From contig JAKZSU010000063.1 of assembly GCA_047517485.1 (NCBI GenBank), forward strand, positions 1 to 21,835: a stretch of DNA of 21,835 nucleotides, in the 5' to 3' direction. This stretch comes from Alphaproteobacteria bacterium. GTDB lineage: Bacteria; Pseudomonadota; Alphaproteobacteria; UBA7887. Shown piece by piece: positions 1,854-21,579 of this stretch (the first letter of the stretch is position 1; the number at the start of each line of letters is the position of its first letter). The notes beneath the pieces are model-generated. The model was given only the letters and a program-made list of their open reading frames with translations. It had not been told where the DNA came from and ran no database searches. The translations under genes were made by a program, and so were the position numbers.

Positions 1854-2726
1854 GTGGCCGAAGACGTCGAGTGCATCTGGCCGGCGGGCGCCATTCTCGG
1901 CGAGGGCCCGCTTTGGGTCGCCGACGAAGCGGCGCTCTATTGGGTCGATATCAAGGCGCCGGCGATCCATCGCTATGAGTCGCGGACCCGCGCGCGCGAC
2001 AGCTGGCCGATGCCGGAGCCCATCGGCTGTCTGTGCCGGCGGATGAGCGGTGGCTTCGTCGCCGGATTGAAGAGCGGTTTCGCGTTCCTCGATTCCGATC
2101 TCGGCAACCTCGAGCGGTTCGACGGTCCCGAGACCGATTCATCCGGCAATCGCACCAACGACGGCAAGGTCGACGCCCAAGGCCGGCTGTGGGCCGGAAC
2201 CATGGACGATGCGGAAATCGAAGCGACCGGCGCGCTTTACCGCCTCGACCCGGATCACGGCTGGCAAACCATGGACACCGGTTACGTGATTACCAACGGC
2301 CCGGCCTTCAGTCCCGACGGCAACACGCTCTATCACACCGATACGTTGGCGCGGACGATCTTCGCGTTCGATCTGTCGGACGATGGAAAAATTATGAATA
2401 AACGATCATTCATTAAATTTCCGGATCTACACGGCTATCCCGACGGCATGACCGCCGATGCCGAGGGATACCTCTGGGTGGCCCATTTCGGCGGTTGGCG
2501 GGTAACGCGGTTCGACCCCAACGGCGAGGCGGAACGGGTGATTCGGCTGCCGGTCTCGAATATCACCAGTTGCACCTTCGGCGGGCCGGATACCACGCAG
2601 CTCTTCATCACCACCGCAACCAAGGGCCTGGACGACGCGGCACTCGCTGGCCAACCCTTGGCCGGGGGTTTGTTTGCCGTGGAAACTGGGATCGAAGGGC
2701 TTCCTACCCCCGCCTATGCCGGATGA
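1854..2726 (+). CDS. SMP-30/gluconolactonase/LRE-like sugar lactonase (GTG start)
   Basis: Motifs GEGPLWVADEAALYWVDI, NDGKVDAQGRLWAGTM, ITNGPAFSPDGNTLYHTDT and YPDGMTADAEGYLWVA are typical of the regucalcin/gluconolactonase beta-propeller. It starts 9 nt after the SDR stop. Confidence 0.88.
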   Translation: MAEDVECIWPAGAILGEGPLWVADEAALYWVDIKAPAIHRYESRTRARDSWPMPEPIGCLCRRMSGGFVAGLKSGFAFLDSDLGNLERFDGPETDSSGNRTNDGKVDAQGRLWAGTMDDAEIEATGALYRLDPDHGWQTMDTGYVITNGPAFSPDGNTLYHTDTLARTIFAFDLSDDGKIMNKRSFIKFPDLHGYPDGMTADAEGYLWVAHFGGWRVTRFDPNGEAERVIRLPVSNITSCTFGGPDTTQLFITTATKGLDDAALAGQPLAGGLFAVETGIEGLPTPAYAG

Positions 2727-3598
2727 ATTATTGGTTTGAACGAGACCCGCGCCGATAAGGTTTCGCCCGGCGCGAGCGCCCGCATACTGGTATTCGGCGC
2801 GCCGTCGGCGGCCCGGTTGAAGGCATCGGTCATGTGGCTGACCGGCTCGACACAGAAAAAATCGCCGCCGGGAGGGGCGTACACGACCAACTTTCGCAGC
2901 GCTGTATCCGCCGCGATCTCAAGCGATGCGCCTTCGTCGGGCCACGCGATGCTGGCGCGACCGCTCCAGCTGTCAAATCCATTGTCGATCGCCATGTCGC
3001 GAACTTCGACCCCCGTCGCCAAGTCCCAACTTGGCGGCGGGCGTACCCGCTTGGTCGGCATGACTTCGTCGTCGGTCAACCAAACGGCATCGACATCGGC
3101 GCCGAGCGTCGCGTTCGCGCGCAGCGGAAAATAGGGGTGGAGGCCGAGCCCCGCCGGCATTTTCTCAATCGACAGATTGCGCACCGAGACTTCGATCTCG
3201 AGCGCGCCGACCGAAAGGCGAAATGATTGTCGCGCCTCGTATTCAAACGGCCAGGCATCGGCGGCATGGCGATTGACGAGATCGAGTCGGTCGGCGCCTT
3301 GGTCGGCGATCTGCCACGGCGCTTGCCAGCCGTGGCCGTGGATACTGTGGGGGTGATCGGCGAAATTGAGTGGCAGCGCGATTTCCCGGTCGGCGAAGTG
3401 AAAACGACCGTTTCGTATCCGGTTCGAATAGGGGACTAGCGGAAAGCACGCCGCCGAAAGAGCGTCGGTGCCACTGGCGGCCTTGAACCAATCGATCCGC
3501 CCGGTGCGCGCCTCGGTCCAGAAGGCGGTGACGATCCCGCCAGCATTCGGCGCTACCTCCAGACAAAGGTTCTCAGCGCGTAACGAAATCCGATCCAT
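2714..3598 (-). CDS. Aldose 1-epimerase (galactose mutarotase-like) family protein
   Basis: Motifs HPHSIHGHGWQ, LGLHPYFPL and FFCVEPVSH fit the aldose-epimerase fold signatures. It is convergent with, and overlaps by 13 nt, the lactonase gene. Confidence 0.75.
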   Translation of the reverse strand: MDRISLRAENLCLEVAPNAGGIVTAFWTEARTGRIDWFKAASGTDALSAACFPLVPYSNRIRNGRFHFADREIALPLNFADHPHSIHGHGWQAPWQIADQGADRLDLVNRHAADAWPFEYEARQSFRLSVGALEIEVSVRNLSIEKMPAGLGLHPYFPLRANATLGADVDAVWLTDDEVMPTKRVRPPPSWDLATGVEVRDMAIDNGFDSWSGRASIAWPDEGASLEIAADTALRKLVVYAPPGGDFFCVEPVSHMTDAFNRAADGAPNTSMRALAPGETLSARVSFKPIIHPA

Positions 3599-3607
3599 CG
3601 AGGTGGA

Positions 3608-4078
3608 TCAGAGCAAATCCGAGCATTTTCGCAGTGCCTTGGCGGTCGCGTAATCATAGGCCGTCGCCTCGTCGCCACCGCGCACCTTGCCGGCCGAGAA
3701 CGATACGCCGCCCACCGAGCCGGTCCGAGTACCGCCGCCGCTCACCCGCCCGGAGCCAAACTGCGACTTGGAGGTGCCGCTTTCAGCCAAGGTGAGCTTG
3801 ACCATCACGGTCACCTCGTCGCCCTCGCGGCGGCGATCGGCGACCTCCCAGGTCCAGCCATCGGCGCCATAGCGGTCGTCGAGAAACCGCGCGACATCTT
3901 GGGCACCTTTCGGCACCGGCTGGCTCGCGGCGGCCGGTGCCGCCGACACGGTCGGCGCGGGCGACACGGTCGGCGCGGGCGCGCTGCCGCCGTCAAACAA
4001 GCTGTCGAATTGCTGGCGATTGCGGCTAAGCATGTCGTCGAACGATGACGCGAACCCCTGTTTCGGCGAATTAGTCAT
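3608..4078 (-). CDS. Hypothetical 156-aa protein with an uncharacterised conserved core (paralog of the HyuB N-terminal extension); weak Rad52/Rad22-like beta-hairpin/helix motif
   Basis: ATG overlaps the TGA of the upstream isochorismatase-family gene (ATGA) and it lies 9 nt upstream of the epimerase gene. Blocks DDMLSRNRQQFDSLF, DGWTWEV...VTVMVKLTLAESGTSKSQFGSGRV and ATAYDYATAKALRKCSDLL align with residues 20-140 of the 10392..12671 protein. A Pro/Ala-rich linker contains an 18-bp tandem duplication. Confidence 0.6.
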   Translation of the reverse strand: MTNSPKQGFASSFDDMLSRNRQQFDSLFDGGSAPAPTVSPAPTVSAAPAAASQPVPKGAQDVARFLDDRYGADGWTWEVADRRREGDEVTVMVKLTLAESGTSKSQFGSGRVSGGGTRTGSVGGVSFSAGKVRGGDEATAYDYATAKALRKCSDLL

Positions 4079-4767
4079 GCGACGGCGCTATCCTCTCGGT
4101 TCCACCAACTTTGGAAACCCGCGCCGTCCGCGGCACCGAGCGCGCGCAAATAGGACAGGACTTCGTGGCCGTCGATCACATCGCCATATTTGGCGTCGAT
4201 GTCGAACAGGTTGGCCTCGTGCGGCCCCGCGGCGCGATCGCCGACCGCGTCGCGGACGACGACGGTGCGGTAGCCGTACTGCATCGCATCGATCGCCGAG
4301 GCCCGCACGCAGCCGCTGGTGGTGGCGCCGACGATGACCACCGTATCGACGCCGTGCCCACGCAGGCGGGTGTCGAGGTCGGTGCCGAAAAAGGCGCTGG
4401 CGAAAAATTTCTCGAGCACCGGCTCGCCGCCGAGCGGGCGAATCCGATCATCGATGGCGACGGCGCGCGATCCCCGGACCAGGACCTTCAGCGACGGCAC
4501 CTTCTTGATGAACACGCCGGCGTCGCGCAGATCTTCATAGACCACGGTGGTGAACAGAATGGGGTGGCCGCCGGCGCGAAACGCCGCAAGCAGATCCGCC
4601 GTCACCTTGAGTTCGGACGGGTAATCGCCGCCGAGCGGGCTCGTCGGATCGGTGAAGCCGTTGCTGAAATCGACCACCAGGAACGCCGGCTTGACGCCAA
4701 AGCCCGAGCGCTCGGCGAGACCCTTCCGCTGGTAATCCTCGAACGTGCTTTGCCGCGACTGGTCCAT
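4075..4767 (-). CDS. Isochorismatase-family cysteine hydrolase (N-carbamoylsarcosine amidase / cysteine amidohydrolase-like)
   Basis: Motifs AFLVVDFSNGF (catalytic Asp region) and VVIVGATTSGCVRASAIDA (catalytic Cys) match the isochorismatase/CSHase fold. GGAGG sits 6 nt upstream of the ATG at 4767. The longer track ORF (to 5007) is an Arg-rich N-terminal artefact. Confidence 0.8.
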   Translation of the reverse strand: MDQSRQSTFEDYQRKGLAERSGFGVKPAFLVVDFSNGFTDPTSPLGGDYPSELKVTADLLAAFRAGGHPILFTTVVYEDLRDAGVFIKKVPSLKVLVRGSRAVAIDDRIRPLGGEPVLEKFFASAFFGTDLDTRLRGHGVDTVVIVGATTSGCVRASAIDAMQYGYRTVVVRDAVGDRAAGPHEANLFDIDAKYGDVIDGHEVLSYLRALGAADGAGFQSWWNREDSAVA

Positions 4768-4904
4768 GACCACCCTCCAACAACGATGAAACCCGCGGTG
4801 ACGATACCCAAGCCGCGACCGGCGATCAATGCCGGCCCTTGCCGGACGTGGGTGAGAAGACGCAAGATGCGGCCGGACGACAAAAGATCGACGGAGGATA
4901 CGCG

Positions 4905-5942
4905 ATGAGCGACGACAAGGATGGGAAATATTCCCCTGGCGCCGGACGGCTTGGTCGAGGCCCGAGCTACCGGCCGAGCTCGCTGATCGGCGGCGGCGGC
5001 ACGGCAACCAGCACCGAACGGACAGCGGGCGCGGCGGCCGGCGGCAAGAAAGAAATCCTCTGCGCCTTTGGCGTCGATGTCGACGCGGTCGCCGGCTGGC
5101 TGGGCTCCTACGGCGGCGAGGATTCGCCGTGCGACATTTCGCGCGGCCTGTTCTCCGGCGAGGTCGGGGTGCCGCGTCTGGTCAGACTGTTCGATCGCTT
5201 GGATCTGCAAACCTCGTGGTTCATTCCCGGCCACTCGATCGAGACCTTTCCCGATCAATGCCGCATGGTGGTCGACGCCGGTCACGAAATCGGCATGCAC
5301 GGCTACAGCCACGAAAATCCGATCGCCATGACCCGGGTCCAGGAAGAGGCGATCATGGACAAGTGCATCGACCTGATCGAAAAGTTGAGCGGCCGGCGGC
5401 CCACCGGCTATGTCGCGCCGTGGTGGGAATTCAGCGCGGTGACCAATGAGTTGTTGCTCAGCCGCGGCATCAAATACGACCACAGCTTGATGAACAATGA
5501 CTTCCATCCGTTCTATGTGCGGGTCGGCGACAGTTGGACGCCGATCGATTACTCGCAGCATCCCGACGTCTGGATGAAACCGCTGGTGCGCGGCGAGGAG
5601 ACCGATCTCATCGACATCCCCGGGTCGTGGTATCTCGACGATCTGCCGCCGATGATGTTTATCAAATCGGCGCCGAACAGTTTCGGCTTCGTCAATCCAC
5701 GCGACATCGAGGAATTGTGGCGCGACCAGTTCGACTGGGTGTACCGCGAGTACGACTACGCGGTGTTCACCATGACCATTCACCCCGATGTCTCCGGCCG
5801 ACCGCAGGTCCTGTTGATGCTTGAGCGGCTGATCGAATATATCCGCGGCCACGGCGGCGTGCGCTTCACCACGTTCGACGATATCGCCGACGATTTCGCC
5901 CGCCGCCATCCGCGCGAGGGGGCCAGCGTGGCCGCCGAATAG
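4905..5942 (+). CDS. Polysaccharide deacetylase (NodB-homology) family hydrolase, possibly a cyclic-amide/allantoin-type amidohydrolase
   Basis: Motifs [11 protein letters not shown] (Asp-x-Asp motif 1) and [13 protein letters not shown] (His-His metal motif) are present. GGAGGA sits 8 nt before the ATG at 4905. Confidence 0.85.
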
Positions 5943-5952
5943 GATTCTCGCA

Positions 5953-6273
5953 ATGTGCAGTCTGTGCGGCATGATCGGTGGACGGGGGCATTGGACCGAG
6001 AGCGGTAGCCACCCGGAAGCTTTCCGGCGCGAGACGCCGAGTACGCGTGGGCGCGAACGCCAGCACCGCACCCGGCAGGTCAATCGGGTGCTCGCGCACT
6101 ATGGCTTGGTGGTGTCCGACTTTTCAGGCTCGGGTTATGTGCTGCGCACCCGCACCGGCCGCAGCGCGATGATCGCCAATATGACCGAGCTGTGGGCCGA
6201 GGCCGAGCGCCTGACCGGGCGCGCCTGCGACCCGCTGGATGGCGCGCTGCTCACCGCGCTCGAAAGCTCGTAA
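5953..6273 (+). CDS. Hypothetical 106-aa protein with N-terminal CSLCG (CxxC) motif, in operon with COG0523 GTPase
   Basis: GC3-rich coding frame. It starts 10 nt after the deacetylase stop and ends 8 nt before the COG0523 ATG. No recognisable family. Confidence 0.45.
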   Translation: MCSLCGMIGGRGHWTESGSHPEAFRRETPSTRGRERQHRTRQVNRVLAHYGLVVSDFSGSGYVLRTRTGRSAMIANMTELWAEAERLTGRACDPLDGALLTALESS

Positions 6274-6281
6274 GGCCGGTC

Positions 6282-7274
6282 ATGGGCGCCTACGCCGACC
6301 TCATTCCCATTCACGTGCTGACCGGCTTTCTCGGTAGCGGCAAGACCACCGTGTTGAAGCGTTTGCTGCAATCGCCGCGCCTCCAAGATACCGCGGTCCT
6401 GGTCAACGAATTCGGCGAGGTCGGTCTCGATCACCATCTCATCGAGCACGCCAGCGAGAGCACGCTACTGCTCGACAATGGCTGCCTGTGCTGCGCCGTG
6501 CGTGGCGATCTGCAAGCCAGCTTGCGCGATCTGCTGGACCGCCGCGAACGCGGCGAGATCCCGCGCTTCGAACGCGTCGTCATCGAGACCTCGGGGCTCG
6601 CCGATCCAGTGCCGATCGCCTACACCGTGCTCGCCGATCCGCTGGTGCAACATCACTACCGCCTCGGCAATATTTTGACCGTCGTCGACGCGGTGAACAC
6701 GCTGGCCGGCCTGTCGCGCTTCCCGGAATCGGAAAAGCAGGTGTTGACCGCCGATCATCTGCTGATCAGCAAACTCGACCTCGCCGACGCCGAGGACCCG
6801 CGCGCGCTGCTCGCCCGGCTCAATCCGTCGGCCCGGATCAGCGACGCATCGGACCTCGATCCGGCGGCGCTGCTCGCCGACGATCTCTATACCGAGGCGG
6901 GCAAGAAGCGCGCGGTGGATACCTGGCGGCAAGCACCGACCGAGCATAGCCACGACAGCGCGGTGACCTCGTTCTGCCTGACCTTCGACGCGCCGCTCGA
7001 TTGGAGCGCCTTCGGCATCTGGATGACCATGCTGCTCAACCGCCACGGCGAAAAGGTTCTGCGCATAAAAGGATTGCTGAATGTCGCGGGGCTCAGCGCC
7101 CCGGTGCTGGTCAACGGCGTGCAGCACATAGTCCATCCGCCGACCCACCTCGACGCCTGGCCGGACGAGGACCGGCGGTCACGGCTGATTTTTATTACTC
7201 GCGATTTGCAGCGCGAACCGATCGAGGCGTCGTTGGCGGCTTTCAATGCGTTGGCGAATAGGCAGGCCGCTTAA
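6282..7274 (+). CDS. COG0523 / CobW-family metallochaperone GTPase (G3E family)
   Basis: Walker A GFLGSGKTT, signature DNGCLCCAV (GCxCC metal-binding motif), a switch region, and a CobW C-terminal domain. The real start is probably MGAYADLIPIHVLTG at 6282. Confidence 0.9.
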   Translation: MGAYADLIPIHVLTGFLGSGKTTVLKRLLQSPRLQDTAVLVNEFGEVGLDHHLIEHASESTLLLDNGCLCCAVRGDLQASLRDLLDRRERGEIPRFERVVIETSGLADPVPIAYTVLADPLVQHHYRLGNILTVVDAVNTLAGLSRFPESEKQVLTADHLLISKLDLADAEDPRALLARLNPSARISDASDLDPAALLADDLYTEAGKKRAVDTWRQAPTEHSHDSAVTSFCLTFDAPLDWSAFGIWMTMLLNRHGEKVLRIKGLLNVAGLSAPVLVNGVQHIVHPPTHLDAWPDEDRRSRLIFITRDLQREPIEASLAAFNALANRQAA

Positions 7275-7277
7275 GCG

Positions 7278-7808
7278 TTATTCCGCCGGCCCGCGCGTAA
7301 TGTCGCCGCGCCCCGGCGCCCGTTTCGGCCGCCAGCCGGAGCGGAAGGCGCGCACGACGTGGTGCAGCAGGTAGAACGCGACGGCGAGGATCACCAGCAA
7401 GACGATCGTCAGCAGGTGGCTGCCGAAGCCGCGGTCGACGGTCTCGGTTTGGCCGATCAAGGTCTCGCTCAGCATGACGATCGCCTGCAGGGTGGCGCCG
7501 GCGCAGAAGATGACCGCCACCAGGATCGAGATCTGCAGGGTGTCGAAAATCAATTCCTCGGCATTCAGTTCGCCGGCGCTGCGGAAAATCTTCGCCCGAA
7601 AGGTCTGCCAATGGGCAATCGCGTAGCCGACGACGCCGACCAGCGAGGCGAACCAGAAAATCAGATTGTCGGATTTGATGTGGGTGATGCCGTCGACGAC
7701 AAAGGCCTCGAACGGCTGATAAAAGTAGAGAAATATCAAGCCGATGATGATCGCGATGACCGTCATCCAAAACCGCGGCGTGCGCGCGCTCAAAGGCTTT
7801 TCGTCCAT
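7278..7808 (-). CDS. Hypothetical integral membrane protein (about 4 TM), function unknown
   Basis: 176-aa frame with hydrophobic helices (WMTVIAIIIGLIFLYFY, LIFWFASLVGVVGYAI, ISILVAVIFCAGATL, LLTIVLLVILAVAFYLL). The overlapping frames are Arg/Asp-rich shadow ORFs. Confidence 0.5.
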   Translation of the reverse strand: MDEKPLSARTPRFWMTVIAIIIGLIFLYFYQPFEAFVVDGITHIKSDNLIFWFASLVGVVGYAIAHWQTFRAKIFRSAGELNAEELIFDTLQISILVAVIFCAGATLQAIVMLSETLIGQTETVDRGFGSHLLTIVLLVILAVAFYLLHHVVRAFRSGWRPKRAPGRGDITRGPAE

Positions 7809-8337: not shown

Positions 8338-10395
8338 ATGGCTAGTCGTCTCGGGATTGATGTCGGAGGAACGTTTACCGACCTGCTGTTGTTCAACGAC
8401 GACAGCGGGGCCATTCAGCTGCTCAAGACGCCGTCCACCCCCGAGGATCAGTCGATCGGCATTCTCCAGGGCATCGAGAAAATTCTCGCCGAGAGCGGCA
8501 CCTCGCCGGCGGCGATCCAGTCGCTGCTGCATGGCACCACGGTATCGACCAACATCGTGCTCGAGGAGAAGGGCGCCAAGGTCGGCTTGATCGTCACCGA
8601 GAATTTCGAGCAAATCCTGCATATGGCGCGCTCGCAAACCCCGGGACCGCTGGCCGGCTGGATGATCATGATCAAGCCCGATCCGCTGGCCGATCTCGAG
8701 GTTACCCGCGGGGTACCCGAACGCGTCGATTCGCGCGGCCAAGTGGTGACCCCGCTCGACGAAAGCGCGGTCCGCACAGCCGTCGGCGAGCTCGCCGCCG
8801 CTGGGGTCGAATCGATCACCGTGTCGCTGCTGCACGCCTATGCCAACCCGGCGCATGAAGAGCGCATACGGGCGATTATCCGCGACATGGGTGTCGACGT
8901 GCCGATCTCGCTGTCGTCGGAAATCCTGCCCGAGTTTCGCGAGTACGAGCGCACGCTGGTGGCGGTGATGAACGCCTATGTTCGCCCGGCGATGCGGCGC
9001 TATCTCGCCAATTTCGAGGACAAGCTGGCGAATATTCAGTTTTCGCCGCATGTCAGCATCATTCGTTCGGACGGTGGGGTGATGAGCGTCGAGCGGGCCT
9101 CGGAATCGCCGGTCCACACCATGCTGTCGGGCCCCGCCGGCGGGGTCTCCGGCGCCGCCTTCGTCGCCGGTCTCGCGGGCCATCCGGAAGCGCTCGGCTT
9201 CGACATGGGCGGCACCTCGACCGATGTTTCGCTGATCCGCGACGGCAAGCCGACGATCTCGCGCCAGACCTCGCTGGGCTATTACCCGATCAAGATTCCG
9301 TCGGTCGAAGTCCATAGCGTCGGCGCCGGCGGCGGCTCGATCGCCCATGTGCCGATGACCGGGGCGCTGAGAGTCGGCCCGGAAAGCGCCGGCGCGGTGC
9401 CGGGGCCGGCGTGCTACGGCAAGGGCGGCGATCAGCCGACGGTGACCGACGCCAACGTGATGCTCGGCCGCCTGCCGCCGGCGCTGCTCGGCGGCGAGAT
9501 GCGGCTCGACGTCAAGGCGGCCGAGGACGCGGTACAGAAAATCGCCCGCGCGATCGGCCTCGATACCTATCAGGCAGCGCAAGGCATTCTCGATATCGTC
9601 AATGAGAACATGTTCGGCGCGCTGCGCCTGCTGACGGTGCAAAAAGGCTTGGATTCGCGCGATTTCGCGCTGGTCGCGTTCGGCGGCGCCGGACCGATGC
9701 ACGGCAATGCGCTGGGTATTCTCGCCGGCTGCTTCCCGGTGATCGTACCGCCGACACCGGGCGTCCTCTCGGCGCTCGGCTTTCTCTATTCCGACGTCAA
9801 GAACGAGTTCGCCCAGACCTTCATCCGCAATCTCGATGACGTGCAAGGCGAGCAAATCCGCGACGTGCTGTCGGGTCTCGGCCAGCAAGCGCGCGCTTGG
9901 CTGCAGGAAGAAGGCATCGAGGAAGCGCGCCAGACCCTGCATTACGAGGTCGACGTGCGCTACTTCCGCCAAGGCTATGAATTTTCGCTCGACGTCGGCC
10001 TCGAGGGCCTGGCGAACGGCGGTCTCGGCGACATCGCCGACCGCTTTGGCGCCGCCCACGAGCGCTTGTACGGCTTCCGCCTCGAGCAGCCGGTGGAATT
10101 GGTCAATTTGCGCTCGGTCGGCACCGGTGCCGTGGCCAAGGTACCGTCGCCCAAATTCGAGCGCGGCGAGGCGGACACCTCCGCCGCCGTGGTTGAACAG
10201 CACCGAGTGTTTTTCGATGGCAACTTCCTGACCGCGAACATCTATGATCGCAGCCTACTCACCGCCGGGAACCGGGTGACCGGGCCGGCGGTGATCATGC
10301 AGAAAGACACCACGACGGTGGTCCATCCGGGCCACGTCGGCGAAGTCGACGAGTATCTGAACATCTTGATTTGGCCGGAGACCGGACGCCAATGA
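8338..10395 (+). CDS. hyuA: Hydantoinase/oxoprolinase family subunit A (ATP-dependent hydantoinase / N-methylhydantoinase A-like)
   Basis: N-terminal GIDVGGTFTDLLL (actin-like ATPase fold motif of HyuA/OplA). The 685-aa length fits the family. The stop overlaps the hyuB start (ATGA). Confidence 0.9.
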   Translation: MASRLGIDVGGTFTDLLLFNDDSGAIQLLKTPSTPEDQSIGILQGIEKILAESGTSPAAIQSLLHGTTVSTNIVLEEKGAKVGLIVTENFEQILHMARSQTPGPLAGWMIMIKPDPLADLEVTRGVPERVDSRGQVVTPLDESAVRTAVGELAAAGVESITVSLLHAYANPAHEERIRAIIRDMGVDVPISLSSEILPEFREYERTLVAVMNAYVRPAMRRYLANFEDKLANIQFSPHVSIIRSDGGVMSVERASESPVHTMLSGPAGGVSGAAFVAGLAGHPEALGFDMGGTSTDVSLIRDGKPTISRQTSLGYYPIKIPSVEVHSVGAGGGSIAHVPMTGALRVGPESAGAVPGPACYGKGGDQPTVTDANVMLGRLPPALLGGEMRLDVKAAEDAVQKIARAIGLDTYQAAQGILDIVNENMFGALRLLTVQKGLDSRDFALVAFGGAGPMHGNALGILAGCFPVIVPPTPGVLSALGFLYSDVKNEFAQTFIRNLDDVQGEQIRDVLSGLGQQARAWLQEEGIEEARQTLHYEVDVRYFRQGYEFSLDVGLEGLANGGLGDIADRFGAAHERLYGFRLEQPVELVNLRSVGTGAVAKVPSPKFERGEADTSAAVVEQHRVFFDGNFLTANIYDRSLLTAGNRVTGPAVIMQKDTTTVVHPGHVGEVDEYLNILIWPETGRQ

Positions 10396-12671
10396 GTGAA
10401 TTCGACCGATCGCGCGTAGCGACATCGCTTGACGACCTGCTGAGGTCGAGCCGCGACCAGTTCGAGGCGGTGGTGGCGGGCCAGAAGACCGAAATCGGCC
10501 TGGTCAACGTCAGCCACGTCCCGGTGACCGCCGATCAGTTGGCCTCGGCCAGCCTGGCCTCCGAGGGCAACGGCGCGGGGGACGTGACCGCGACTTTGAA
10601 CGCACGCTTTGGCGACGACTGGTCGACGGAGATCGTCGAACATAAGGTCGAGCGTGGCCGGGTCACGGTGCTGTGCAAACTCACCGTCGGCGACACCAGC
10701 AAGATGCAATTCGGCAGCGTGCGGGTGAACGGCGACGAAGGCGCGGCGTTGCAAATGGCGGCCGACGACGCGCTCGACAAATGCGCCGCGATGTTCAACG
10801 GCACTGGCAACGGGGCGGCACCCGCCGATACCAAGGCGCCAGTGGCGCGGCCGGACGCCGAGCCCATTGCCGCCGCCGCGCCAGCGGCACGCCAGACGTC
10901 CGGCGCGCTCGATCCGATTACCTTGGACCTGATCGAGAACGCGCTGCGCAACGCGCGCCACGAAATGGACGCGGTGCTGTTCCGCTCGGCGATGTCGCCG
11001 GTGATCCGCGAGCAGCATGACGAGTTCCCGATGATCACCGACCGCCAGGGACGGATGATCGTCGGCCAATTCGGCTCCTACGTCCCGGAGATGCTGCGCA
11101 GTTTCGAAATCACTTTCGAGCCCGGCGACGTGCTGCTGCAGAGCGATCCCTACAAATGCGGCGGCGCGATCAGCCATATCAACGACTGGATGGTGCTGGT
11201 CCCCATCTTCCATCAGGGCGAACTGGTCGGCTTCAGCTCGATGTTCGGCCACATGATGGATGTCGGCGGCTGGGTGCCAGGCAGCATGCCGACCGCGGCG
11301 TCGTCGATCTTCGGCGAGGGCATCCGCATTCCGCCGATCAAGATCTACGAGCGTGGCGTGCTCAACAAGGGCGCGCTCGACTTGTTGATGAACAACACCC
11401 GCACCCCGGAGATGAATTACAGCGACTTGATGGCGATCGTCGCCGGTAGCCGCGCCGGCGAGAAGCGGGTGATCGAGATTTGCGACCGTTTCGGCGCCGA
11501 AACCTACAATAAGGCGTGCGACGCGTTGTTGGAGCGCACCAACCGCGCGATGCGGACGCTGATCACCCAGAACCTGCCCGAGGAGCCGCAATCGTTCGAG
11601 GATTACGTCGACGATGACGGCTGCGGCAACGGCCCGTTCAAAATGAAATTGACGGTGTGGCGCGAGGGCGATCACGCCTATTTCGACTGGACCGGAACCT
11701 CGCCGCAAGCCGAGGGACCGATCAATTTCTATCTCCACGATGGCATGTTCAAAATGTTCATCGGGGTCTACATGATCATGGTGTTCGATCCGCAGATCCT
11801 GTTCAACGACGGGTTCTACGACCTCATCCACGTAACCATGCCGGACGGCTCATTGGTGCATCCGACGTTCCCCGCGGCACTGGGGTGTCGCACCCACGCG
11901 TTGGCGCGCCAGTTCGATGTCCTGGGCGGCGCGCTGAGCAAGAACGCGCCGGAGATGGCGACCGCGGCGGGGTACGGATCGAGCCCGCATTTCCTCTACT
12001 CGGGAACCGATTCCGACGGCCGCGCCTTCCAGCTGATGGAAATTCTTTACGGCGGCATCCCGGGACGGCCGATCGGCGACGGCATGGACGGCCATTCGTG
12101 GTGGCCGCTGTTCGAAAACATTCCCACCGAATATCTCGAAAGCTATTACCCGATGCGGGTCGAGAGCTACGCGTCTATTCGCGATTCCGGCGGCGCCGGA
12201 CTGCATCGCGGCGGCAACGGGGTCGACAAGGTCTATCTGCTGCTCGAGGCCGGAGAAATCTCAATTCATGACGACCGGCACCTGACCCAGCCGTGGGGTA
12301 TTCTCGGCGGCAAACCGGGCGAATGTTCGGAGAAGTGGCTGGAGCGCGCCGATGGATCGCGCGAACCGCTGCCGTCGAAAATCGACAGTGTGAAAGTGGT
12401 CAAGGGCGACCGGATCATTTTCCGCACCGCCGGCGGCGGCGGCTGGGGCGATCCGTTGCAGCGCGATACCCAAGCCGTGCGCAACGATGTCGCGCGTAAA
12501 CTGGTGAGCGCCGCCGCGGCACACAACGAATACGGCGTGGTGCTCGGCGGCGACGCTATCACCGTGGACGCGCGCGCGACCGAGGATGCGCGCGCGAGCA
12601 TGCGTGCCAACCGCGCGACGCAGCCGCTGTTCGATTTCGGCGAGCGACCTTCGGGAGTACGTTCGAGTTAA
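10392..12671 (+). CDS. hyuB: Hydantoinase B/oxoprolinase family subunit B with an unusual about 175-aa N-terminal extension carrying an uncharacterised conserved core domain
   Basis: From about nt 10908 onward (LDPITLDLIENALRNARHEMDAVLFRSAMSPVIREQHDEFPMITD...) the sequence is canonical HyuB. Residues 1-175 are in frame with no stop and no internal start. They are paralogous to ORF 3608..4078 and joined by an Ala/Pro-rich linker. Confidence 0.88.
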   Translation: MSEFDRSRVATSLDDLLRSSRDQFEAVVAGQKTEIGLVNVSHVPVTADQLASASLASEGNGAGDVTATLNARFGDDWSTEIVEHKVERGRVTVLCKLTVGDTSKMQFGSVRVNGDEGAALQMAADDALDKCAAMFNGTGNGAAPADTKAPVARPDAEPIAAAAPAARQTSGALDPITLDLIENALRNARHEMDAVLFRSAMSPVIREQHDEFPMITDRQGRMIVGQFGSYVPEMLRSFEITFEPGDVLLQSDPYKCGGAISHINDWMVLVPIFHQGELVGFSSMFGHMMDVGGWVPGSMPTAASSIFGEGIRIPPIKIYERGVLNKGALDLLMNNTRTPEMNYSDLMAIVAGSRAGEKRVIEICDRFGAETYNKACDALLERTNRAMRTLITQNLPEEPQSFEDYVDDDGCGNGPFKMKLTVWREGDHAYFDWTGTSPQAEGPINFYLHDGMFKMFIGVYMIMVFDPQILFNDGFYDLIHVTMPDGSLVHPTFPAALGCRTHALARQFDVLGGALSKNAPEMATAAGYGSSPHFLYSGTDSDGRAFQLMEILYGGIPGRPIGDGMDGHSWWPLFENIPTEYLESYYPMRVESYASIRDSGGAGLHRGGNGVDKVYLLLEAGEISIHDDRHLTQPWGILGGKPGECSEKWLERADGSREPLPSKIDSVKVVKGDRIIFRTAGGGGWGDPLQRDTQAVRNDVARKLVSAAAAHNEYGVVLGGDAITVDARATEDARASMRANRATQPLFDFGERPSGVRSS

Positions 12672-15529: not shown

Positions 15530-16612
15530 GTGCCCGACTATGACGTGGTCCTGGAAGGCGTCGACAAGACGTTCGACGGCGACGTGCGCGCGGTTATCGA
15601 TTTTAACGCGGAGATCGAGCGCGGCGAATTCGTCGCCATGCTCGGGCCCTCGGGCTGCGGCAAAACCACCACATTGCGGATGATCGGCGGTCTGGAAGAG
15701 GTCACCGCCGGACGCATACTCATCGCCGGTAAGGACGTGACCGACCTGCCGCCGTCGCTTCGCGAGACGTCGATGATGTTCCAGAGTTTCGCGCTGTTCC
15801 CCCACCGTACGGTGTTCCAGAACGTCGAATTCAGCATGAAGATGAAAGGCATCTCGCGCGAGGCGCGGGCGAAGCCGGTGTGGGATATGCTGGAAAAGGT
15901 CAGTCTCGAGCCGCTCGCATCGCGCTACCCGCAGGATCTGAGCGGCGGCCAGCAACAACGTGTCGCCTTGGCGCGCGCATTGATCAGCAATCCCACCGTT
16001 CTTTTGCTCGACGAGCCGCTGGGCTCACTGGATTATAATCTTCGCCAGACAATGATCATCGAACTCAAGAAAATCCAGCGCGAACTCAGTTTGACGTTCA
16101 TAATGGTCACCCACAGCCAAGAAGAAGCGATGTCGATGGCCGACAAAGTCATCGTGATGAGCGATGCGATGATTCAACAAACCGGAACATCGCGGAAAAT
16201 ATACGAAAGCCCGCGCACCCGCTTCGTCGCTGAATTTATTGGTAACAACAACCTGTTTACCGGAATCATCCGTTCGCGTAGTGGCAGCATCGTTATAATC
16301 GAGGTCGCCGACCACTTGTGCTATGTCGCCGCGCCGGAAAAAGGGCGGCGTGTCACGCTTGGCGAGGAAGTCGCCTTCTCGGTGCGTGCCGATGTCATGC
16401 ACACCGGCGAGCAAGCCGATATGGCCAACCGGATCGAGGGGCGCTACCTCACTACCGAGTTCAGGGGATCGTTGGAAACCGACGTGTTCGAGCTGACGCC
16501 GGGACATTTCGTCCGCGTCGAACAGCATCGTAACGTCTCCGACCAAATGTACGCGAGCGGCGACCGCGAAGTCATTTGCTGGCCGGCCGAGTCCGGCGTG
16601 CTGCTCGAATAG
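15530..16612 (+). CDS. ABC transporter ATP-binding protein, PotA/polyamine-type importer ATPase with C-terminal TOBE-like domain (GTG start)
   Basis: Walker A GPSGCGKTT, Q-loop, signature LSGGQQQRVALARAL, and Walker B LLLDEPLGSLD. It starts 8 nt after the flotillin stop. Confidence 0.9.
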   Translation: MPDYDVVLEGVDKTFDGDVRAVIDFNAEIERGEFVAMLGPSGCGKTTTLRMIGGLEEVTAGRILIAGKDVTDLPPSLRETSMMFQSFALFPHRTVFQNVEFSMKMKGISREARAKPVWDMLEKVSLEPLASRYPQDLSGGQQQRVALARALISNPTVLLLDEPLGSLDYNLRQTMIIELKKIQRELSLTFIMVTHSQEEAMSMADKVIVMSDAMIQQTGTSRKIYESPRTRFVAEFIGNNNLFTGIIRSRSGSIVIIEVADHLCYVAAPEKGRRVTLGEEVAFSVRADVMHTGEQADMANRIEGRYLTTEFRGSLETDVFELTPGHFVRVEQHRNVSDQMYASGDREVICWPAESGVLLE

Positions 16613-18634: not shown

Positions 18635-19921
18635 TCAGGCGCTAATGAACTCGGTCCAGCGCTTCACCAGATAGTCGTTCTCGTCCATCAACGAGTTCCA
18701 TACGGCGATGTTGCGGAAGCGGTCCTCGTAGGAGCCGCCGTCGCGCACTTCGCCCTTCTCGACGATGATGGTGCCGAACGGATCGGGCAGCTCCCGCGCC
18801 GCCGGCTTGCCCATGTACCAGTAGTCCCACTCGTCGGAGTCGAGGTGCTTCTGCACATTGCCGGGCACCGACATGTAATAGCCCTGACGCGCGACAAACG
18901 CGCCGGCCCAGCCTGACAGCCACCAGTTGACGTATTCGTAGGCCTGATCGAGTGCCGCGCCGGATGTCGCGGCCGAGATCGCCAAACCGCCATGCCAGCC
19001 GCGCATGCCTTCCTTGGGCGAAGCATAGACGCAGCGCACGCCCTCGGCCTTGATCGCGGTAACCGCCGGCGACCACATGCTTTCGAGCACCACTTCGCCG
19101 CTGACCATGAGGTTCACCGATTGGCCAAAGGTTTCCCAGAAAGCGCGGAAATGGCCCGCCTGTTTCTTTTCGATGAGGAAGTCGATTAGGAAATCGATTT
19201 CGTCGCGAGTCATGTTGCCCTTGTCGCCGAAAGTGAGAAGGCCGAGCGCCTCGACACCGAGGGCGGCATCCATCACGCCGATCTGCGGAATGTTGAGCAA
19301 CGCCACCGATCCGGCGAAGTCTTCGCTGAACAGTTCCGCCCAACTGGTTATTTCGCGACCCGTATCGTCGGGGTTGTAGCCGATGCTGTCGGCATTATGC
19401 CAACCGGGTACCATCGAGATGTAGCGCGATGGGCCATCGACGCGATTGCCGTCGGCGTCGAGCCAGAGGAGGCGGAACGGGGCGTCGCCTTGGCCCGGAT
19501 TCGAGCCTGGGGTCAGCTGACCGGTCTTGCACAGATTGGAAACCGCGTCCCATTCCGGGATCCGCTGGGTATCGATCGGCTGCCAGACCTTCGACGGCGT
19601 GAACACGTCGAGATCGTTGAAATAGCCTTCCGCGACTTCGTATTGGTCGTTCTGATTGAGCATCTTGCCGAACATCGCGCCATAGCCCAGCGCTTGTCCG
19701 CGAACCTCGAAACCAAGGTCTTGCGATGCCTGGCTTTGAATCTCGTTGATTACGCTGACGCCGAGACCCACGGTGCGTACCGGATCCGCCGCGCGCACGA
19801 TATTTGGAAAGCCGGTAATCGTGGTCGCCGCGACCGCCCCGGCCGTGGTGCCCATGAACCGGCGCCGGGTCAAACCCTTGCCGGGCTTCTTGAATGAAGT
19901 CCGTATTTTCCTTGCCGACAT
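18635..19921 (-). CDS. ABC transporter periplasmic substrate-binding protein (family 1, PotD/PotF-like) with twin-arginine (Tat) signal peptide
   Basis: N-terminus MSARKIRTSFKKPGKGLTRRRFMGTTAGAVAATTITGFPNIVRAADP has an RRxF Tat motif and an AxA cleavage site. GGGAGGA sits 6 nt upstream of the ATG at 19921. The track ORF extends to 19951 via an alternative GTG. Confidence 0.85.
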   Translation of the reverse strand: MSARKIRTSFKKPGKGLTRRRFMGTTAGAVAATTITGFPNIVRAADPVRTVGLGVSVINEIQSQASQDLGFEVRGQALGYGAMFGKMLNQNDQYEVAEGYFNDLDVFTPSKVWQPIDTQRIPEWDAVSNLCKTGQLTPGSNPGQGDAPFRLLWLDADGNRVDGPSRYISMVPGWHNADSIGYNPDDTGREITSWAELFSEDFAGSVALLNIPQIGVMDAALGVEALGLLTFGDKGNMTRDEIDFLIDFLIEKKQAGHFRAFWETFGQSVNLMVSGEVVLESMWSPAVTAIKAEGVRCVYASPKEGMRGWHGGLAISAATSGAALDQAYEYVNWWLSGWAGAFVARQGYYMSVPGNVQKHLDSDEWDYWYMGKPAARELPDPFGTIIVEKGEVRDGGSYEDRFRNIAVWNSLMDENDYLVKRWTEFISA

Positions 19922-20094
19922 TGTCGTCCTCCCTAATCGCCCATCGGTCACTTTACAAACCGCTCAATGCTTGGGCCTCTGACCGGTTACTGCCCGCACG
20001 TGTTCGTCATGGCGGTTTCTTATCTGGTCGACGATCTGATACTACAGGGAGCGGCCCGAGTTTTGAACTGCAAAGCCCGCCCGGGGGAACGACA

Positions 20095-21579
20095 ATGAGC
20101 GTGTTGATCAAGAATGGTCGCGTGGTGACCGCCACCGACGACTACCACGCGGACATATTCATCAAGGATTCGACGGTCACCCTGATCGGCAAGGATCTGG
20201 TAATCGACGCCGACCGGGTGATCGATGCGGCGGGAAAGCTGGTGATTCCCGGCGGTATCGACCCGCACACTCACATGCAAATGCCGTTTGGCGGCACCGA
20301 GACCTCGGACACCTTCGAGACCGGGACCCGCGCCGCGGCATTCGGCGGGACCACGTGCATCGTCGACTTCGCCATCCAGTCCAAGGGCTCATCGACCATC
20401 GAGGCACTCGATACCTGGCATCAAAAAGCCGCCGGCAAGACCGCGATCGACTACGGTTTTCACATGATCATTACCGACATGCCGGATCACCGGGTGCCGG
20501 AAATGCGCCGCCTTTCGGACGAGGGGATCACCAGTTACAAGCTGTTCATGGCCTATCCGGGGGTGTTGTTGTCGGACGACGGCACGATTTTTCGCGCCAT
20601 GCGCAAGGCCGGCGAGGATGGCACCCTGGTGTGCATGCACGCCGAGAACGGCGTGGTGATCGACGAGTTGGTCAAGCTCGCCCTGGCGCAAGGCCATATC
20701 GAGCCGAAATATCACGCCTATACCCGCCCGACCCGGCTCGAGGCCGAGGGCGCGCACCGTGCGCTGGCGATCGCCGAAGTCGCGCGCTCGCCGGTCTACA
20801 TAGTCCATTTGAGCGCCTATGATTCGCTGAAGGAACTGCGCGACGCCCAGGCGCGTGGCGTCATGGCGCACGCCGAGACCTGCCCGCAGTATCTCTTGCT
20901 CGACGTCGACGCCTATGATCAGCCGGGATTCGACGGCGCCAAATATGTCCTGACCCCGCCGCTGCGCGAGAAATGGAACCAGGACGAATTATGGTCGGGC
21001 TTGCGCACCGGCGATCTCAGCGTGATCTCCACCGACCATTGCCCGTTCTGCCTCAAGGAGCAGAAAGAACTCGGCAAGGACGATTTCAGCCAGATCCCCA
21101 ATGGTGGCCCGGGGGTCGAGAACCGGATGAGCCTGATCTACCATTACGGTGTCAACATGGGCCGCATTGGGCTCAATAAATTCGTCGAACTGACTTCGAC
21201 CGGGCCGGCGAAGATCTTCGGTCTGTTCCCGAAAAAAGGCACCATCGCGGTCGGCAGCGACGCCGATATCGTCATCTTCGATCCCGAACACGAAGAGACC
21301 ATCAGCTATTACAATGCCAAAACCCACCACATGAACATCGACTACAACGCCTATGAGGGCTTTCCGGTGAAAGGCTTCACCGAGACCGTGCTCAGCCGCG
21401 GCAAGGTGATCATCGACAAGGGCGAATATGTCGGCCGCGCCGGCGATGGCGCGTTCGTCAAACGCGGCCCCTATGGTGGCATGTACGCCTCGGTGGCCGA
21501 GGCCAACCGACGCGAGGGCCCGGCCAGCCCGCTGTCCGAACAAGGCGGCGCGATGGCGCGCAAAATGGCGGCGGAATAG
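20095..21579 (+). CDS. Dihydropyrimidinase / D-hydantoinase (cyclic amidohydrolase superfamily)
   Basis: Start MSVLIKNGRVVTATDDYHADIFIKD. Metal-binding DPHTHMQMPFGG (HxH), with carboxylated-lysine and His/Asp ligand regions. At 494 aa it is typical for D-hydantoinases. A GGGGGAA RBS precedes the ATG at 20095. Confidence 0.9.
   Translation: MSVLIKNGRVVTATDDYHADIFIKDSTVTLIGKDLVIDADRVIDAAGKLVIPGGIDPHTHMQMPFGGTETSDTFETGTRAAAFGGTTCIVDFAIQSKGSSTIEALDTWHQKAAGKTAIDYGFHMIITDMPDHRVPEMRRLSDEGITSYKLFMAYPGVLLSDDGTIFRAMRKAGEDGTLVCMHAENGVVIDELVKLALAQGHIEPKYHAYTRPTRLEAEGAHRALAIAEVARSPVYIVHLSAYDSLKELRDAQARGVMAHAETCPQYLLLDVDAYDQPGFDGAKYVLTPPLREKWNQDELWSGLRTGDLSVISTDHCPFCLKEQKELGKDDFSQIPNGGPGVENRMSLIYHYGVNMGRIGLNKFVELTSTGPAKIFGLFPKKGTIAVGSDADIVIFDPEHEETISYYNAKTHHMNIDYNAYEGFPVKGFTETVLSRGKVIIDKGEYVGRAGDGAFVKRGPYGGMYASVAEANRREGPASPLSEQGGAMARKMAAE

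Follow-up and report, generated by a model that had tools for sequence, protein, structure and literature searches.

The window analyzed here, a 21,835-nt stretch of alphaproteobacterial DNA, carries a gene for a 156-aa protein directly behind one for an isochorismatase-family cysteine hydrolase, and on the opposite strand genes for the two hydantoinase subunits HyuA and HyuB, a flotillin-like SPFH protein and an ABC-transporter ATPase (Table 1). The HyuB reading frame begins with a domain paralogous to the 156-aa protein, and this pairing of one domain type with two different hydrolytic enzymes is the pattern that has to be explained.

Table 1. Positions of the genes and features in the window
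Feature	Position	Strand	Basis
Aldose 1-epimerase	2714..3598	-	Aldose_epim, 148 bits
156-aa standalone protein	3608..4078	-	Read from sequence
ATGA stop/start overlap, hydrolase and small ORF	4075..4078	-	Read from sequence
230-aa isochorismatase-family cysteine hydrolase, CSHase/NicF clade	4075..4767	-	PF00857, 125.8 bits
F-Q-S-W-W motif, hydrolase C-terminal tail past the isochorismatase fold	4102..4116	-	Family consensus D-F-x-x-W-W
Polysaccharide-deacetylase-family hydrolase	4839-5942	+	Pfam, NCBIfam
Conserved 106-aa ORF	5953-6273	+	Divergent three-gene block
CobW-type metallochaperone GTPase	6192-7274	+	Pfam, NCBIfam
176-aa predicted 4-TM membrane protein, no Pfam match	7278..7808	-	Translation
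HyuA (Hydantoinase_A, ATP-binding subunit)	8338..10395	+	Hydant_A_N/Hydantoinase_A/Hydant_A_C; PDB 7hk5, 9.5e-136
HyuB N-terminal paralogous domain, in-frame fusion	10392..10910	+	Paralogy with 156-aa protein
HyuB (Hydantoinase_B) catalytic core	10911..12671	+	PF02538, 499.7 bits, residues 181-695
Flotillin-like SPFH/Band-7 membrane protein, 914 aa	12775..15519	+	PF01145, translation
ABC-transporter ATPase (ABC_tran + TOBE_2)	15530..16612	+	Pfam
D-hydantoinase/dihydropyrimidinase	19894-21579		Scan of window ORFs

The ATG of the small gene (4078-4076) overlaps the TGA of the hydrolase gene (4077-4075), and the aldose-epimerase ORF begins 9 nt past the small gene's stop, a geometry proposed in an earlier note on this DNA and borne out when read directly from the sequence. 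Judged from this arrangement, the small gene is probably translationally coupled to the hydrolase gene, and one transcription unit taking in the aldose epimerase is plausible. A hairpin at 3612-3589 was considered as a terminator between small gene and epimerase and rejected; it is weak, and such sites are as numerous as expected after shuffling. The hydrolase gene itself starts with an ATG at 4767, with GGAGGG ahead of it, and its product matches the Isochorismatase family over residues 28-200 (E 2.6e-36, cut-off 27 bits). Its best solved relative is PDB 26st_A, entitled N-carbamoylsarcosine amidohydrolase (CSHase, EC 3.5.1.59; 54% identity, E 1.2e-65), followed by the maleamate amidohydrolase NicF (3ot4, 42%) and Arthrobacter CSHase (1NBA, 37%). 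In phmmer alignments D33 (vvDfs), K120 (lEKf) and C153 (tsGCVR) fall on the catalytic Asp, Lys and Cys of 1NBA, which we take to be Asp51, Lys144 and Cys177, and the hydrolase shares both these positions and the GDR motif with the solved CSHase and NicF enzymes. The earlier note had called the enzyme CSHase-like and had allowed for its being a generic isochorismatase; the CSHase relationship, with HyuA and HyuB both best matched by N-methylhydantoinase, supports the former over the latter by homology. The hydrolase differs from its solved relatives at the C-terminus, where 26st (221 aa, aligned up to residue 217) and the other solved enzymes lack the D-F-x-x-W-W tail. That tail was present in all 18 of the hydrolase tails read (17 partnered orthologs and that of locus L020). 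It was missing from an unpartnered 213-aa hydrolase paralog in loci L015 and L017, and the isochorismatase-HyuA-HyuB cluster to which no small gene belongs in these same genomes has a HyuB lacking the N-terminal domain.

HyuA matches Hydant_A_N, Hydantoinase_A and Hydant_A_C (321, 175 and 49.5 bits), and its TGA overlaps the ATG of HyuB at 10392-10395, a second ATGA junction. For both subunits the nearest solved enzyme is 7hk5, entitled N-methylhydantoinase (E 3.5e-71 for HyuB, its best PDB match), and the next is caprolactamase 6yra; the NCBIfam equivalog cut-offs for caprolactamase were not reached (CapA 533 and CapB 244 bits, against 1000 bits for each). The whole HyuB ORF (10392-12671, 766 aa) begins with an extension of about 170 aa, comprising the paralogous domain and its linkers, that is unmatched in the solved relatives, where alignment begins only near query residue 155. 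The fusion is one continuous ORF in seven other complete loci. Most hits that seemed to be standalone copies of the HyuB-type domain were set aside as fragments, or products of frameshift-prone assemblies, that end just inside the HyuB core, and an apparent fusion to an isochorismatase domain (P0126) was rejected as a read-through artefact, its linker being out-of-frame sequence. The pathway substrate may be N-methylhydantoin or creatinine or another cyclic amide; the ORFs scanned in the window include none from a creatinine/cytosine deaminase or sarcosine oxidase family. Searches of the literature on CSHase and N-methylhydantoinase found none describing 26st, 7hk5 or the hydrolase-small gene pair.

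The paralogy of the 156-aa protein with the N-terminus of HyuB, also put forward in the earlier note, was recovered by BLASTP at 32% identity over about 135 aa (E 9e-18). The two paralogs have a common layout of an amphipathic N-terminal helix, a disordered linker rich in Pro and Ala, and a compact core, alpha-beta-beta-beta-alpha in order, for which a Rad52-like fold is predicted. In the 156-aa protein the conserved helix occupies residues 11-28 or thereabouts, with the motif S-x-F-D-D-M-L...F-D-x-L, the linker about residues 29-57 and the core residues 58-156; in HyuB the core lies at about residues 62-135 and is followed by a second Pro/Ala linker. Alignments showed the helix motif to be conserved in both paralog groups, and an HMM of the helix, run across all loci, had high-significance matches to the small protein and the HyuB N-domain only, the sole extra match being a single off-frame fragment in L022 (E 9e-4). 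The last helix of the core carries a Cys that is invariant in both subfamilies, and a Gly-rich insert between the third strand and that helix is found in the standalone type but not in the fused type. No catalytic motif or ligand-binding pocket is apparent in the 156-aa protein.

Homologs of the small protein are covered by no model in Pfam or NCBIfam, and all source names seen were "hypothetical protein". A full HMMER scan gave 589 cluster representatives (50% identity) at E <= 1e-3, of which 164 were at E <= 1e-10, and a word-indexed search gave at least 263 clusters at 90% identity, whereas an initial search had returned six relatives only, all with near-identical neighbourhoods. Neither a PHROG search nor PADLOC returned anything meaningful for the family.

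Conservation of the gene pair was assessed in 20 loci from alpha- and gammaproteobacterial MAGs, in which the small protein is as low as 30% identical; homologs were retrieved with the small protein alone as query, and the search pattern for loci, [ED]R[RK]R[ED][GD]DE[VI][IVT], samples part of the family only. One further candidate, L019, was treated as spurious, with a marginal 33-residue match and no adjacent hydrolase match. The earlier note had suggested that homologs be checked for a conserved neighbourhood, and the outcome favored its reading: directly upstream of the small gene stood the orthologous hydrolase in 20 of 20 loci with a readable neighbour, and the fusion of N-domain and HyuB lay within 10 kb of the pair in 12, with HyuA at the locus edge in three more. 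The paired hydrolases remain 54-80% identical while the small protein drops to 30%, and the pair is kept across Alphaproteobacteria and Acidiferrobacteraceae despite rearranged surrounding genes, an arrangement by which these hydrolases depart from the CSHase/NicF enzymes. Among 18 measured junctions, the genes overlapped by 4 nt in five (the ATGA of the window recurring in L001, L003, L005 and L012) and were separated by 7-11 nt in 13, several of the latter with an SD-like purine run overlapping the stop codon. ATGA overlaps alone are common in bacterial operons and unremarkable; it is the conservation of the junction, rather than the overlap itself, that exceeds chance. Two loci, L013 and L023, had no HyuAB within 10 kb, so a nearby HyuAB may not be required for the pair to function.

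Several other neighbours were retained along with the pair. The SPFH protein, which has an N-terminal TM segment, an SPFH domain and a long coiled-coil region rich in Glu, Ala and Arg, is encoded directly after HyuB in all nine loci with that side available, and the ABC ATPase comes next wherever that side is available (70-72% identity in L006, L007, L015 and L017). By tblastn, the 4-TM gene keeps its place inside the module, with the hydrolase to one side and hyuA to the other, and has orthologs of 50-100% identity in 15 loci; at the same position L022 has a 175-aa gene without a Pfam family. The divergent block at 4839..7274, in which the true start of the CobW-type GTPase is probably a Met near 6282, is conserved in the alphaproteobacterial loci and missing from both gammaproteobacterial ones, where the 4-TM gene persists without the deacetylase and CobW genes. 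The aldose epimerase follows the small gene in L001, L003 and L005 only and is absent from L006-L023; together with the SGL and SDR genes it was rejected as a member of the system, these genes being kept in the closest relatives only.

The predicted structures of both paralogs have the beta-beta-beta-alpha core of the Rad52/Rad22 family and match RAD52, Mgm101 and Sak best, with dsRBD proteins next; dsRBD and ribosomal protein S5 N-domain folds scored lower than Rad52-type folds for both paralogs, with neither a sequence signal nor an RNA-related context. The sequence match to Rad52_Rad22 (PF04098) was below the gathering score (12.9 against 20.3 bits, E 0.1), such a weak match being found in one of 22 members, and a PDB profile search with the broad family alignment returned nothing at E <= 10. 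Alignment to human RAD52 with hhalign placed the helix-G-W-strand segment in the RAD52 register at E 0.008 and 0.016, with a probability below 5%. The N-terminal hairpin, the C-terminal stem helices and the basic groove residues of RAD52 are missing. In a register anchored by hand on the invariant Cys, and so moderately secure, the equivalents of RAD52 K152, R153 and R156 are respectively Ala or variable, Lys/Asn/Arg/Gly, and Asp/Glu/Ala. Median net charge is -2.5 (pI 5.4) for standalone cores and 0 for fused cores, compared with +2 (pI 8.6) for the RAD52 core. Unlike Rad52, Mgm101 and Sak, moreover, these proteins carry an N-terminal docking-type helix on a disordered linker and are fused or coupled to metabolic hydrolases.

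The patterns described are consistent with the 156-aa protein being a subunit without catalytic activity that assembles, or tethers, the enzymes of a two-step catabolic system for cyclic amides, a tentative interpretation to which we give a probability of roughly 0.4. It is favored because of the paralogy of the two domains, the conservation of the pair in 20 of 20 loci, the fusion to HyuB, the shared N-helix motif, the hydrolase tail, and the co-conserved SPFH, ABC and 4-TM genes. Under this model the small protein would bind the hydrolase, possibly via the D-F-x-x-W-W tail, and the paralogous cores, the shared N-helices or both may bind one another or a partner that they share. HyuAB and the hydrolase would thereby be held in one complex, in which the N-carbamoyl (or amide) compound formed when HyuAB opens the ring could pass straight to the amidase, and the assembly would probably sit at the membrane beside the ABC importer and the SPFH and 4-TM proteins. 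The Rad52-type fold may serve here as a scaffold for protein-protein oligomerization instead of a DNA-annealing surface; as the core is without the C-terminal stem helices of the RAD52 ring, oligomerization cannot be assumed. Within the HyuA/HyuB superfamily, acetone carboxylase offers a precedent for an additional subunit of this sort, its gamma subunit being a small, non-catalytic third component of a HyuAB-type enzyme. That subunit binds zinc and has a different fold from the Rad52-like core, and the 156-aa protein matched no Pfam family, that of the acetone carboxylase gamma subunit included. Counted against the assembly model are that the pair stands apart from HyuAB in L013 and L023, that channelling is a hypothesis and that the known N-methylhydantoinase and CSHase are separate soluble enzymes.

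An alternative explanation could be that each copy serves its own enzyme alone, as a regulatory or allosteric module, a chaperone for folding or stability, or a binder of substrate or effector, and that nothing is bridged. We consider this rather unlikely. In its favor, a physical tie, either fusion or gene coupling, links each paralog to a single enzyme, the subfamilies have diverged to the point that only the standalone type has the Gly-rich insert, and the pair occurs apart from HyuAB in L013 and L023; the invariant Cys of the last helix would fit it as well. It would not account for the N-helix and long disordered linker common to both paralogs, a layout such as tethered docking peptides that bind a common partner typically have, and a role in binding small molecules sits poorly with the absence of an apparent pocket or catalytic motif. 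The N-helix might instead be a targeting peptide by which HyuAB, along with the complex of hydrolase and small protein, is brought to the SPFH assembly and the 4-TM protein, forming a membrane-attached microcompartment beside the ABC importer, which is a more specific version of the assembly model. We regard this as unlikely. The order of SPFH and ABC genes behind HyuB and the persistence of the 4-TM gene even in gammaproteobacterial loci are in its favor, as is the observation that the plain cluster in L015 and L017 lacks the domain, the tail and any adjacent SPFH match in the available sequence; by analogy, the succession of N-helix, linker and cargo may be likened to known encapsulation or targeting peptides. 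The evidence is one of co-occurrence. In L013 and L023 the pair had no SPFH gene seen in its vicinity, a binding site on the SPFH protein was not identified, and the literature searched gave no precedent, nothing relevant having been found that combined Rad52 or Rad52-like proteins, flotillin or SPFH with hydantoinase or isochorismatase.

It is improbable that the protein is a genuine nucleic-acid-binding protein of Rad52 or dsRBD type, acting as an RNA-binding autoregulator of the operon or in single-strand annealing and linked to the hydrolase by gene order alone. The structural ranking, the weak Pfam match and the hhalign register all lean that way, but most standalone cores are acidic, Asp, Glu or Ala usually stands in the place of R156, the Pfam score falls short of gathering in the single member that matches, a metabolic enzyme carries one of the copies as a fusion, and the family gave no PHROG or PADLOC match. 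Across the loci no recombination gene was a conserved neighbour; transposases lie near several, none of them recurring. A Y-family polymerase and peptidase S24 pair lies near the genes in L022 and does not recur in other loci. The claim of the earlier note that the domain acts with these amidohydrolases and not in DNA repair is supported by the acidic to neutral cores, the loss of the RAD52 groove residues and the lack of a recurring recombination gene. That the adjacency is merely inherited synteny without functional meaning, or that the small ORF is no real gene, could have been entertained from the handful of near-identical neighbourhoods first retrieved. The comparative data effectively refute both: the family is large at either clustering level, the pair survives the change of every other neighbour and spans two proteobacterial classes, and the conserved residues and confident fold prediction indicate a real protein.

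The finding has several implications for these enzymes. Two paralogs placed on two consecutive enzymes of one pathway are an unusually clear genomic signal, and for annotation the locus warns against deriving a recombination function here from a fold-based "Rad52-like" call. A bolder version, which we consider quite doubtful, is that a Rad52-type fold has been recruited out of nucleic-acid metabolism as a protein hub whose N-helix, as a targeting peptide, loads both the hydantoinase and the amidase that follows it onto, or into, a flotillin-like SPFH assembly over the ABC importer; if true, this would amount to a membrane-attached microcompartment for catabolism, a type undescribed in bacteria. 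Creatinine diagnostics and lactam biocatalysis make use of HyuAB and CSHase enzymes, and if the assembly model is right the 156-aa family would provide the first accessory or tethering subunit for them. It would also put the Rad52/SSAP fold to work outside nucleic-acid transactions, and would tie a bacterial flotillin-like SPFH protein, a group for which clear clients are scarce, to a defined enzymatic client.

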